Source: an uncultured Acidobacteriota bacterium
GTDB taxonomy: Bacteria > Acidobacteriota > Terriglobia > Terriglobales > Acidobacteriaceae
NCBI GenBank assembly: GCA_963696525.1
Contig: CAVOKO010000012.1
Span: forward strand, 1,024,275 to 1,056,274
Reading direction: 5' to 3'
Length of the DNA stretch: 32,000 bases
The notes below the pieces were generated by a model. That model ran no database searches. It had not been told where the DNA came from and saw only the letters and a program-made list of their open reading frames with translations. Numbering within the stretch: the first letter of the stretch is position 1; each line of letters starts with the position of its first letter. A program made the position numbers and the translations under genes. Below, piece by piece: positions 14,130-17,480 of the stretch.

Positions 14130-14405
14130 TTATCCGCAATCGCAGCTTACGCATTCACCGTTCTTGCCGCGCATGCTATTAATAATAGCCGCCGCGCAGC
14201 CTACTCCGGCAGAGACTTCGATTGCTTTCGTCGCGCAGTTCATACGGCAGGCTCCGCACTCCATGCAATCTTCGCGGTTGGCGATCACAGCTTTCCGTTC
14301 GACGACCGCAAACACCGCGTGCGGGCAGACTTCCTCGCAACGGCCGCAGCCGTTACAGAGCACCGCATCCAGGACGAGCGAGTGACCATTCAGAAGATAG
14401 CGCAT
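14130..14405 (-). CDS. hgcB: HgcB, 2[4Fe-4S] ferredoxin of the mercury-methylation pair
   Basis: 91 aa; CNGCGRCEEVCPH plus CMECGACRMNC (HgcB signature CMECGAC), conserved GVGCAAA downstream and Cys-rich C-terminus ECVSCDCG. Begins 10 bp after hgcA. Confidence 0.93.
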   Translation of the reverse strand: MRYLLNGHSLVLDAVLCNGCGRCEEVCPHAVFAVVERKAVIANREDCMECGACRMNCATKAIEVSAGVGCAAAIINSMRGKNGECVSCDCG

Positions 14406-14415
14406 AGTGTTCCCT

Positions 14416-15453
14416 CTAAACGAACGCCGCGGTAATTCGAAGAACCGCTCCCGCTGCCGCAGAGACTAAGATCGGCGGCAACGCTCGCCGGACTTCCAAC
14501 TTTGCCCCAGCCTGGGTGGTGAAGGTCGTGGACCCGGTGAACATCATCGCCATGTACGAAGTGATTGCCACTACAAGAAGGACGACTCCGGCTGCTTCGG
14601 TAAATCCCATCGGAAGCAAAACCAGCAGGCTCGCTGCTAACAGTACGCCTGCAACCGTTCCCTTTAGCGCGAAGTACCTGAATGGGAGCCATGGAAGCAA
14701 TACTGGAACGAGAAGCCCACCCGTAAGAATGGCGGCTACAAAGGGCAGGAGGTCCGTGGCGAGATGCGGCGTCAACTGGTGGTGACGTATCACGTCGAGA
14801 ATAGCCAGCAGCACGAGCGCCACAAGCGCGAGTTTGAGCTGACCAACAATTTCCACGGGCGCGAGAACGATGCGCTCTCTCCAAGTGAAGGTTACGCGCC
14901 GCATGGTCGGCGTGGTCTTCATGCCCGCAGCCAGATAGGCTTTGATGTCGTACGCCCGAACAGGTCCGTAGTGGACTGAGAAGCCGGTAGCGCGCTTCAC
15001 CTCGTGAGCAGCCACTCCCGTAGCGCCGAGCTGCGGGAGCACGAGATCGCGATGCCCCACAACCTTTTTCAGATTGATGGCCTGGATGCGGTGGACGAGT
15101 TCGTCGGTGCCGAAAGTTCCCTTGCCAGCGGCGCACCACACGTTAACGCCTTTGGTATCGAGAATCAGCAACCAGACGTTCGCGCCGACCAACTCTTTTC
15201 GGACCCGGTCAACAGTCAGCTTGTAGTTGGCAGTGACCAGCACGGATGAGTTTGCGTCCGGCTGTCCGATGCGGTATAGCCCCGGTGCGACCCGATATCG
15301 CATGCGCCCGATGCCCCAACGCACTTTCCAGCCGCCGAGCACGTCGCGCCAGGTGATCTGTGTGCTCAGTGAGCCGATGAACGGGTCCGCTGGCGCTTTC
15401 GCCGGGGAGATCTGGCACGGTGTCGGACCACAGCCGCAACCTGTTTGGGTCAT
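14416..15453 (-). CDS. hgcA: HgcA, corrinoid protein of mercury methylation
   Basis: 345 aa; VLVTANYKLTVDRVRKEL...ANVWLLILDTKGVNVWCAAGKGTFGTDELVHRI contains the diagnostic cap-helix motif NVWCAAGK. C-terminal half holds about five hydrophobic helices. RBS AAGGAG upstream of ATG. Confidence 0.95.
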   Translation of the reverse strand: MTQTGCGCGPTPCQISPAKAPADPFIGSLSTQITWRDVLGGWKVRWGIGRMRYRVAPGLYRIGQPDANSSVLVTANYKLTVDRVRKELVGANVWLLILDTKGVNVWCAAGKGTFGTDELVHRIQAINLKKVVGHRDLVLPQLGATGVAAHEVKRATGFSVHYGPVRAYDIKAYLAAGMKTTPTMRRVTFTWRERIVLAPVEIVGQLKLALVALVLLAILDVIRHHQLTPHLATDLLPFVAAILTGGLLVPVLLPWLPFRYFALKGTVAGVLLAASLLVLLPMGFTEAAGVVLLVVAITSYMAMMFTGSTTFTTQAGAKLEVRRALPPILVSAAAGAVLRITAAFV

Positions 15454-15494
15454 TGGGCACTCCTTGCATTCGACACGGCGAATGTGATGTCTGA

Positions 15495-15523
15495 AGAATA
15501 AACTCGACGAACATATATGTCAA
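15495..15523 (-). promoter_or_regulatory. Putative sigma70-like promoter for hgcAB
   Basis: On the minus strand TTGACA (15518-15523), 17-nt spacer, TATTCT (15495-15500), 42 bp upstream of the hgcA ATG. Confidence 0.55.
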
Positions 15524-15534
15524 CACGTATATGT
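15511..15534. promoter_or_regulatory. Candidate ArsR-family operator in divergent hgcAB / ars intergenic region
   Basis: Imperfect palindrome ACATATATGT-CAAC-ACGTATATGT, arms identical at 9/10 positions, overlapping the -35 of the hgcA-directed promoter and lying just upstream of a plus-strand TACAAT -10-like box (15539-15544). Confidence 0.5.
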
Positions 15535-15565
15535 ATGATACAATCTTGGCTTGGGGAGCTGGGAC

Positions 15566-15976
15566 ATGCCGGATCACAATTTGGTGAGAATGGAACGCTT
15601 GTTTGCCGCGCTCGCAGACCGCACTCGCCTGCGTCTGTTGAATCTCATGGCGGAGCAGGAGGTCTGCGTGTGTTACTTCGTAGAGATTCTGGAGTCGCCG
15701 CAACCGACGATTTCCCGGCATCTTGCATACTTGCGCCGCACTGGTCTGGTATCTGCCCGGCGGCAAGGCAAGTGGATGCACTACCGCCTGGCGGCCCCAG
15801 ATAATTCCCTTACCGGTCAAGTTCTGAAAGACACATTGCGCTGGCTTTCAGGAGACAAACAAATGCGGAAGGACCGCGCGCGCCTGAATGGCGCTATTTG
15901 CGCTCCCAAGAAGTTTGTGCGCTTGGTGGGTGCACCAATACCGACCTCAACCGGAGAGATTGAGATCCTGACATGA
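15566..15976 (+). CDS. arsR: ArsR/SmtB-family transcriptional regulator
   Basis: [62 protein letters not shown]: winged helix with CVC in the As(III) site position. ATG at 15566 preceded by GGGGAG; the track's TTG start at 15551 is less likely. Confidence 0.93.
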
Positions 15977-17073
15977 ACAACACAGCCCGCCGTCTCGGAT
16001 TTCTCGACCGTTATCTGACCGCCTGGATCTTCGCGGCCATGGTGGCGGGTGTTGCCGCTGGCTGGCTTCTGCCGGGAATCGTGCCATTCCTAAACAAGTT
16101 CAGCGTGGGCACAACATCGATTCCGATTGCCGCCGGTCTGATCGTAATGATGTACCCGCCGTTTACAAAGGTCCGCTACGAGGAACTCGGCGAGGTCTTC
16201 CGCAACAAGCGCGTGCTGCTGCTTTCCCTGGTGCAGAACTGGATCGTAGGCCCCATCCTCATGTTCGTGCTCGCCGTCGTTTTTCTGCGCGGATACCCCG
16301 AATACATGGCGGGACTGATCATGATCGGTCTGGCCCGGTGTATTGCCATGGTCATCGTGTGGAATGAACTCGCCAAGGGCGACACCGAGTATGCCGCCGG
16401 GCTGGTGGCGTTCAACTCGTTGTTTCAGGTGTTCTTGTATTCCGTGTATGCATGGCTGTTCATCACGGTTCTGCCGGCCAAACTCGGTCTGCATAGCGCA
16501 GTCGTGAACGTGTCGATTGGCGAGATCGCGAAGAGCGTCTTCATTTACCTGGGCATCCCGTTCCTGGCGGGTTTTCTGACCCGCACGGCGCTGGTCCGTG
16601 CTCAGGGCCGTGAATGGTACGACCACAACTTCGTTCCACGCGTCAGCCCGCTGACGCTGGTAGCGCTGCTGTTCACGATCGTTGTCATGTTCTCGCTCAA
16701 GGGCGAATACATTGTTCGATTGCCGTTCGACGTCATTCGTATCGCGGTTCCGCTGTTGATCTACTTCGTAGCGATGTTCCTGGTTTCCTTCTATATGGGG
16801 AAGAAGCTCGGTGCGGACTATTCGAAGACGGCGACGCTCTCATTCACGGCAGCCTCAAACAATTTTGAGTTGGCGATCGCGGTTGCCGTATCGGTTTTTG
16901 GCATCAATTCGGGCGCAGCGTTCGCAGCCGTAATCGGTCCGCTGGTGGAAGTGCCGGTCATGATCGCACTCGTCAATGTCGCACTCTACTTCCAGCGGCG
17001 GTACTTCGGCGAGGCACTGACCGGAGAGCCGGTGGTGGCGATCTGCGATCCCTACGGAAAGAAGGCGCAATGA
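15973..17073 (+). CDS. acr3: ACR3-family arsenite efflux transporter
   Basis: 366 aa; [77 protein letters not shown]. 4-bp overlap with arsR. Confidence 0.96.
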
Positions 17074-17480
17074 GCAAGCAGCGGGTTCTAATTCTGTGTA
17101 CGGGTAACTCTGCACGGAGCCAGATGGCCGAAGGACTGCTGCGCAACATAGCCGGAGAGCGGTTTGAGGTTTTCAGTGCCGGCACTTGTCCAGTGGGGCT
17201 AAACCCGCGCGCCGTTGAAGCGATGAGCGAAATTGGAATTGACATTTCCGGCCAGCGCTCTAAGTCGGTCGACGAGTTCGTGGACCAACAGTTCGATTAC
17301 ATCATCACCGTCTGCGACAACGCCAAAGAGTCCTGCCCGATCTTTCCAGGAAAAGGACAGCGAATTCATCACAGCTTCGAGGATCCCGCGTCCGCTCCGC
17401 CTGATGAGCAACTGACCTGCTTTCGTAAGGTACGGGAACAGCTTGCTCGGTGGCTCTCGGAATTTGTGCGCAATGGGTGA
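17070..17480 (+). CDS. arsC: Arsenate reductase, low-molecular-weight-phosphatase-like (thioredoxin-coupled type)
   Basis: 136 aa; [20 protein letters not shown] (CTGNSAR P-loop), [21 protein letters not shown]. 4-bp overlap with acr3. Confidence 0.96.

Follow-up and report, generated by a model that had tools for sequence, protein, structure and literature searches.

We analyzed a 32,000-nucleotide stretch of DNA from an uncultured Acidobacteriota bacterium (contig CAVOKO010000012.1), hereafter called the window, in which the mercury methylation genes hgcA and hgcB lie head-to-head with an arsenic resistance operon, arsR-acr3-arsC. This layout had been described in an earlier note on the same DNA, and the open reading frame (ORF) map and profile searches located all five genes at the places given there. 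The genes and one feature downstream of them are as follows.

14130-14405, minus strand: hgcB, encoding a 91-aa 2x[4Fe-4S] ferredoxin (NCBIfam HgcB_ferredoxin, NF040864; 98.2 bits, cutoff 99).
14416-15453, minus strand: hgcA, encoding a 345-aa corrinoid protein with a membrane domain (NCBIfam HgcA_corrinoid, NF040863; 422.7 bits, cutoff 275).
15566-15976, plus strand: arsR, encoding a 136-aa ArsR/SmtB repressor (PF01022, HTH_5, 48.5 bits; metalloregulator model NF033788, 89.3 bits, cutoff 55).
15973-17073, plus strand: acr3, encoding a 366-aa arsenite efflux permease (TIGR00832; 467.3 bits, cutoff 282.8).
17070-17480, plus strand: arsC, encoding a 136-aa thioredoxin-coupled arsenate reductase of the low-molecular-weight phosphatase type.
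17639-17662, plus strand: weak terminator-like hairpin 3' of arsC, a consensus match only.

The match of HgcA to NF040863 is full-length, covering profile positions 3-324 of 325 and including the C-terminal membrane domain. The cap-helix motif NVWCAAGK occupies residues 104-111 and contains the putative cobalt-ligating residue, Cys107. HgcB scored one bit below the NF040864 cutoff, with the gene position and all of the expected cysteine motifs present. It carries two CX2CX2CX3C motifs (Cys17/20/23/27 and Cys47/50/53/57), as well as extra cysteines at position 70 and in a C-terminal CxxCxC (Cys85/88/90), whereas the HgcB of Pseudodesulfovibrio mercurii ND132 has an adjacent Cys-Cys pair there. 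The start of hgcB lies 10 nucleotides past the hgcA stop. On the opposite strand, arsR and acr3, as well as acr3 and arsC, overlap by 4 nucleotides in an operon-like manner. Acr3 contains the conserved Cys123 within an R-C-I-A-M motif. ArsC was aligned to the B. subtilis ArsC (1JL3; E = 1.4e-31) with Cys10, Cys82, and Cys89 in register. Since its score of 131 bits to the NCBIfam equivalog TIGR02691 is under the cutoff of 174, we regard it as a divergent member of the thioredoxin-coupled (pI258/B. subtilis) type.

For arsR, the ORF finder had called a TTG start at 15551. This start was dropped in favor of the ATG at 15566, which is kept in 10 loci together with CCGGCAT and a GGGGAG ribosome-binding site. 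With the ATG start, which is conserved in relatives, the gap between hgcA and arsR spans 15454-15565 and is exactly 112 bp long, as the earlier note had stated. It contains the following elements.

15454-15565, no strand: divergent control region, 112 bp, which aligns with 9 related loci.
15460-15465, minus strand: hgcA ribosome-binding site AAGGAG, read from the sequence and conserved in the alignment of relatives.
15467-15484, no strand: palindrome O2, CATTCG-N6-CGAATG, a perfect 6-nucleotide inverted repeat.
15495-15523, minus strand: predicted hgcAB promoter, with -35 TTGACA (15523-15518), a 17-nucleotide spacer, and -10 TATTCT (15500-15495).
15511-15534, no strand: O1, candidate ArsR operator, a 24-bp palindrome (ACATATACGTGTTGACATATATGT) with 10-nucleotide arms that are 90% complementary.
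15517-15544, plus strand: predicted arsR-acr3-arsC promoter, with -35 ATGTCA (15517-15522), a 16-nucleotide spacer, and an extended -10 TGnTACAAT.

Promoters were sought as consensus matches only, assuming that sigma-70-like rules apply to this lineage. Three sigma-70-like sites were found between 13900 and 17800, and every one of them is located within the gap; shuffled sequence yielded a mean of 1.4 sites over the whole 3.9-kb region. The predicted hgcAB promoter agrees with the consensus at 10 of 12 positions. It is the sole leftward candidate in the gap and overlaps O1. The -35 boxes of the two divergent promoters overlap each other at 15517-15523, inside the palindrome. The third site, on the plus strand at 15470-15499 (9 of 12 matches), was paired with no gene. 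A match to O1 occurs once in the 32-kb window and was obtained in none of 100 shuffles.

The second palindrome, O2, sits between the -10 box of hgcA and its AAGGAG ribosome-binding site. Of 12 related loci that were scanned, 9 have an O2-like element at a constant offset, either ATTCG(C)-N4-8-(G)CGAAT itself or a near match to it (CGCAT in the surveyed locus L169). Judged from the sequence, it may represent a second operator or a hairpin in the 5' untranslated region. Because the arms (ATTCG...CGAAT) are invariant among relatives and display no compensatory changes, a DNA-binding site fits O2 at least as well as an RNA hairpin does. No riboswitch or other known RNA was detected in the leader or its flanks (Rfam, E <= 1, 13000-18500).

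Taken together with the comparisons described below, these features suggest that the 112-bp gap is a bidirectional promoter region, in which a single ArsR would repress both sides and arsenite would release them. We assign this reading a probability of about 0.55. An ArsR dimer would bind O1, cover the overlapping -35 boxes, and so shut both the hgcAB and the arsR-acr3-arsC promoters; it may additionally bind O2 in the hgcA leader. Binding of arsenite at Cys34, Cys36, and Cys112 would then free ArsR from the DNA, and hgcAB would be switched on together with the genes for arsenate reduction and arsenite efflux.

To see how far the arrangement extends, a survey was carried out on 80 species-level genome loci and 80 metagenome loci, with 17 context look-ups; individual loci are cited by their survey numbers (L001 and following). 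The closest relatives of HgcA derive from metagenome-assembled genomes labelled Acidobacteria, Bryobacterales, or Solibacteraceae, and the identical HgcA protein is found with unchanged layout on five or more contigs, which belong to several ENA samples and include the soil samples ERZ25039481 and ERZ25039528. An arsR gene divergent from hgcAB was identified in ten lineages, apparently all Acidobacteriota. Across these lineages, HgcA identity falls from 93% to 45% and that of ArsR ranges from 64 to 92%. Since the head-to-head layout recurs in relatives over this span of HgcA identity, it is not attributable to chance.

In six of the lineages, acr3 or acr3-arsC is located 3' of the divergent arsR: the window (with L172-L174), L161, L001, L096, L097, and L167/L168. 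The remaining four (L162, L081/L094, L169/L170, and L171) maintain arsR beside hgcAB but lack acr3-arsC. We consider this the strongest comparative argument for shared control: no other ars gene is next to arsR in these four lineages, and the adjacent hgcAB promoter is therefore the obvious remaining ArsR target, besides arsR itself. Two of the loci, L081 and L094 (HgcA identity, 88-90%), contain an arsR that is truncated at its 3' end to 101 aa (L081, 4324-4629, minus strand; L094, 5570-5875, minus strand). Where acr3-arsC would be expected after it, these loci have a class-III aminotransferase-like gene, and both O1 and O2 are degraded relative to the consensus.

The candidate promoter/operator accompanies the same ArsR clade in all of the related loci that were examined. 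A slightly broadened O1 consensus was matched exactly once per locus in 16 related loci, beside this clade of ArsR, and had no exact match in the other 158 loci; close variants were found in L171 and L165. The -35 box, the 17-nucleotide spacing, the -10 box, and the O2-like palindrome occur at fixed offsets in most loci that bear O1. On the hgcAB side, TTGAC is invariant among relatives, and the -10 box (TATTCT or TATAGT) is equally spaced in most of them; on the arsR side, its conserved form is TAYNAT. In L175, the O1, -10 box, O2, and ribosome-binding site seen in the window precede a one-directional series consisting of a small ORF, arsR, an arsM-like methyltransferase gene, acr3, and arsC, and in L177 they precede the small ORF and a glyoxalase-family gene. 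An ordinary ars operon in a relative, that of L175, is thus preceded by the promoter from which hgcA is read in the window. From these sequence comparisons, arsR and its operator appear to be the constant partner of hgcAB, and hgcAB the most frequent outward cargo of the operator. The acr3-arsC pair seems to be optional and to have been gained or lost independently.

The ArsR of the window contains three cysteines in total, Cys34-Val-Cys36 in helix alpha-3 and Cys112. In an alignment with an ArsR-family protein of solved structure, its EVC34VC36 segment is paired with the motif ELCVC. In an alignment of 121 sequences, comprising the window ArsR and its 120 best homologues, Cys34 and Cys36 are conserved in all 121 and Cys112 in 98%. 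All of the ArsR-like proteins that adjoin hgcA in the surveyed loci carry a CxC at the alpha-3 place. We take the Cys-Val-Cys pair to be an As(III) site of the R773 type from which the third R773 cysteine (Cys37) is missing; Cys112 could serve as the third As(III) ligand instead.

Several observations weigh against ArsR control of both promoters by arsenite. Support for it in this organism is comparative, and the promoters on which it depends are consensus matches under assumed rules. Position 111 of ArsR, which is Cys in 88% of the clade, is Ile in the window. ArsR could bind either of two candidate palindromes, O1 and O2. In L001, L096, and L097, the conserved promoter and hgcA are separated by 200-430 bp, a stretch that holds a small ORF in L001 and a pseudogene fragment in L097; with this much intervening DNA, hgcA could own a separate promoter there. 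In P. mercurii ND132, moreover, the hgcAB transcript level was no predictor of the methylation rate (10.1101/2022.10.17.512643). The proposal in the earlier note that methylation and arsenic detoxification answer to the same signal is supported on comparative grounds only, by overlapping divergent promoters around a conserved palindrome and by the retention of arsR where acr3-arsC is absent.

It is possible, although we think it unlikely, that ArsR controls both sides but responds to an effector other than arsenite, such as Hg(II), methylarsenite, another soft metal, or S-adenosylhomocysteine (SAH). The cysteine sites of ArsR/SmtB proteins bind many thiophilic metals, and the window ArsR is devoid of one of the clade's paired C-terminal cysteines. 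The ArsR2 of ND132 responded to SAH as well as to arsenic, and other metal(loid)s were not excluded by the authors (10.1101/2022.10.17.512643). However, clade-wide, the same ArsR and predicted operator head acr3, arsC, and arsM-like genes, which would constitute a classic As(III) regulon. The Cys-Val-Cys pair also fits the R773-type As(III) site, as judged from the alignment and general knowledge.

Alternatively, the two gene groups may be adjacent without sharing control, so that ArsR governs its own operon only and hgcAB is constitutive or controlled elsewhere. Expression of hgcAB was long held to be constitutive (background in PMC11984097), a sister hgcA clade of Bryobacterales uses a co-directional MarR-like gene with no ars genes nearby, and the relatives with 200-430 bp before hgcA could use other promoters. 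In the window, however, the gap is just 112 bp, and its single leftward promoter candidate overlaps the palindrome. Four lineages without acr3-arsC still keep arsR beside hgcAB, and the leftward promoter is not only conserved but is the ars-operon promoter in L175. We therefore regard mere adjacency as unlikely.

The reading of joint arsenite-responsive control can be extended to function. Lying behind an arsenite-inducible ars promoter, hgcAB would be a true member of the ars regulon, selected for a role in arsenic handling, with mercury methylation as a side reaction. For instance, hgcAB might methylate an arsenical in a corrinoid-dependent reaction or protect the cell against arsenate. We find this proposal, examples included, doubtful and advance it very tentatively.

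The earlier note had also suggested that both gene groups travel as one metal(loid) island. The flanking contexts differ in L001, L097, L162, L163, and L167, the identity ranks of HgcA, ArsR, and Acr3 are mutually consistent across relatives, and McDaniel 2020 argues for inter-phylum transfer of hgcAB. Nevertheless, the 32-kb window contains no integrase, transposase, or other mobility gene, no tRNA gene, no flanking repeats, and no shift in G+C content (module, 0.57-0.58; range over the window, 0.53-0.63), and no HgcA match was found among 72,556 plasmids. The acr3-arsC pair and hgcAB have been lost independently of one another in relatives: the former is missing in 4 of the 10 lineages with divergent arsR, one locus retains only a remnant of hgcA, and another has an internally deleted hgcA. 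The left hydantoinase gene and the cheY-GAF-cheD-cheA flank on the right are common to the window and L161 at approximately 92% identity, which suggests stable chromosomal inheritance. A single horizontally mobile island is thus highly unlikely.

The association of hgcAB with arsenic genes is itself already published, and the locus is a new layout of a known association. Genes flanking hgcAB that include acr3, arsC, arsR, and arsM were reported in McDaniel 2020 (PMC7438021, Fig. 6 text), Zhang 2023 (PMC10349881), and Peterson 2025 (PMC11984097), and Gionfriddo et al. (10.1101/2022.10.17.512643) used P. mercurii ND132 for an experimental test of the hypothesis that hgcAB contributes to arsenic resistance. 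Among the 80 species-level hgcA loci, 38 contain an arsR, 18 an acr3, 19 an arsC, and 12 all three within approximately 6 kb, so the novelty claimed in the earlier note was overstated. In 11 of these 12 loci, every gene is co-directional. Such co-directional clusters (PMC7438021 Fig. 6; PMC11984097 Fig. 4c; L012-L071) contain the same gene set within a few kilobases, but the head-to-head layout and one shared operator were seen only in the lineage of the window. What appears to be new is the head-to-head topology, a defined candidate operator and promoter that are shared and also occur at ordinary ars operons, and their spread in the lineage.

The co-directional clusters of Firmicutes show three gene orders: arsR-hgcA-hgcB-acr3-arsC (L017, L022, L024, and L026), arsR-acr3-arsC-hgcA-hgcB (L045, L055, and L063), and arsR-acr3-hgcA-hgcB-arsC (L071). 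In these Firmicutes, among them the cultured Anaerocolumna (L017 and L022) and Desulfitobacterium (L045 and L063), a co-directional ars operon either encloses hgcAB or ends with it, in agreement with the published neighborhood figures.

The best-studied counterpart is arsR2-hgcA-hgcB of ND132, which resembles the window in having an ArsR/SmtB-family regulator beside hgcAB. There, control of hgcAB by the ArsR-like regulator ArsR2 and its response to arsenic have been demonstrated, and the ars operons were coinduced with hgcAB (10.1101/2022.10.17.512643; Goni-Urriza 2020, cited there). The arsR2 gene is co-directional and cotranscribed with hgcAB and has no other ars genes nearby, whereas the arsR of the window is on the opposite strand and heads acr3-arsC. 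The published description gives ArsR2 a four-cysteine site (Cys47/49/86/88); the window ArsR, with Cys-Val-Cys and Cys112, cannot form such a site because it has only three cysteines (34, 36, and 112). Acidobacteria are not among the taxa listed in the ND132 study as having ArsR-associated hgcAB. Like the ND132 findings, two observations from other systems are in line with ArsR control of hgcAB, though indirectly so for the organism of the window. In a lake, the presence of an arsR-like gene was associated with lower hgcA/gyrB transcript ratios (PMC11984097). In a permafrost system, acidobacterial hgcA transcripts were undetectable though rpoB was expressed (PMC7438021). We found no experimentally confirmed acidobacterial mercury methylator reported in the cited hgcAB literature.

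The right half of the locus resembles canonical arsR-(arsB or acr3)-arsC operons in its overlapping genes, the alpha-3 Cys-X-Cys, the thioredoxin-type ArsC, and a candidate operator over the promoter. Canonical three-gene operons are autoregulated by an As(III)-responsive ArsR; the window adds to this a predicted second, outward promoter into hgcAB. A similar design is known from merR/merTPAD, where a metal-sensing regulator is divergent from its targets and overlapping back-to-back promoters share a single palindromic operator. MerR, however, belongs to a different family and acts as an activator/repressor that distorts DNA, whereas ArsR is a simple repressor freed by its ligand.

The arsenic link is the leading published lead to the native function of hgcAB and to its regulation, and it was not created by this locus. 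The locus does offer an unusually clean test case, with a 112-bp control region, a sharply defined and conserved candidate operator, an alpha-3 Cys-X-Cys pair like that of canonical As(III)-sensing ArsRs, and natural variants without either half. If ArsR gates the hgcAB promoter, hgcA expression in members of this lineage from soil and peat would be predictable from their exposure to arsenite, and the link between hgcAB and arsenic would extend to a phylum outside the taxa listed in the ND132 study.

The sister Bryobacterales hgcA clade (L002-L011, L083, L090, and L095; 60-72% identity) has no arsR. It has a co-directional regulator of approximately 165 aa, MarR-like by eye, with an adjacent-Cys CCGVT motif; its gene lies approximately 500 bp upstream of hgcA (e.g., L005, 5523-6014) and overlaps the start of hgcA. 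McDaniel (PMC7438021) mentioned a "putative transcriptional regulator," which probably corresponds to this protein.

Genes other than hgcAB were also found behind the ArsR-linked promoter. In several loci, the first gene past it encodes a conserved protein just 51-63 aa long, in which two pairs of adjacent cysteines are present (CCG ... MPTPSSCCGVRV at the C terminus). The corresponding coordinates are 5777-5956 (plus strand) in L001, 4702-4890 (minus) in L171, 4708-4887 (minus) in L167, 4001-4165 (plus) in L175, 4001-4186 (plus) in L176, and 4001-4192 (plus) in L177. The next gene is hgcA in L001, L171, L167, and L176, arsR-arsM-acr3-arsC follows in L175, and a glyoxalase-family gene follows in L177. 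None of the 45 members of this family has a Pfam domain, and all of the named ones are annotated as hypothetical. The window lacks this ORF (best tblastn hit, E = 0.06). The protein could be an uncharacterized accessory protein that binds arsenic or another metal. In L165/L166, the same promoter reads into a PEP-mutase-family gene (L165, 3942-4766, minus strand), and in L097 a C-terminal fragment of a similar gene was recognized by eye between the promoter and hgcA (4760-5040), which points to cargo exchange at the ArsR-linked promoter.

Two loci carry apparently damaged copies of hgcA. In L163 (3933-6900, minus strand), the conserved promoter leads into a remnant of 17 codons that resembles the N terminus of HgcA (MSETSRGCGAS...), and the divergent arsR-acr3-arsC is intact. 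Past the remnant are genes for a 228-aa protein without a family match and for a corrinoid reductive activase that is RACo/AcsV-like, although its score with the AcsV model NF040756, 351.8 bits, falls short of the cutoff of 800. This locus may reflect the loss of hgcAB or a different corrinoid system moved under ArsR control. In L167 (3945-4682, minus strand), hgcA has lost the codons for residues 91-191 in frame, and with them the corrinoid cap-helix domain, and hgcB is fragmented, with the neighboring arsR-acr3-arsC intact; either hgcAB is decaying in this locus or the assembly is at fault. An apparent 245-aa HgcA in L176 was rejected as a conserved short form, as it derives from a frameshifted long-read assembly with the corrinoid domain in another frame.

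In the window, the neighbors on the hgcAB side are genes for a hydantoinase, an MFS transporter, and an RraA-like protein, and on the arsC side a chemotaxis cluster. Further to the right, a Dynamin_N domain (27120-28900, plus strand) is split over the overlapping ORFs 27120-27674 and 27581-28900, adjoining a STAND/AAA NTPase gene at 26332-27096; the split could be a frameshift or a sequencing error. The chemotaxis cluster is complete (18330-26086, plus strand), with CheY, a GAF protein, CheD, CheA, MCP, CheR, and CheB, and is syntenic with L161. Between arsC and cheY lies a 99-codon ORF without a family match (17738-18037, plus strand); L161 has it in the same place, with 81% conservation.

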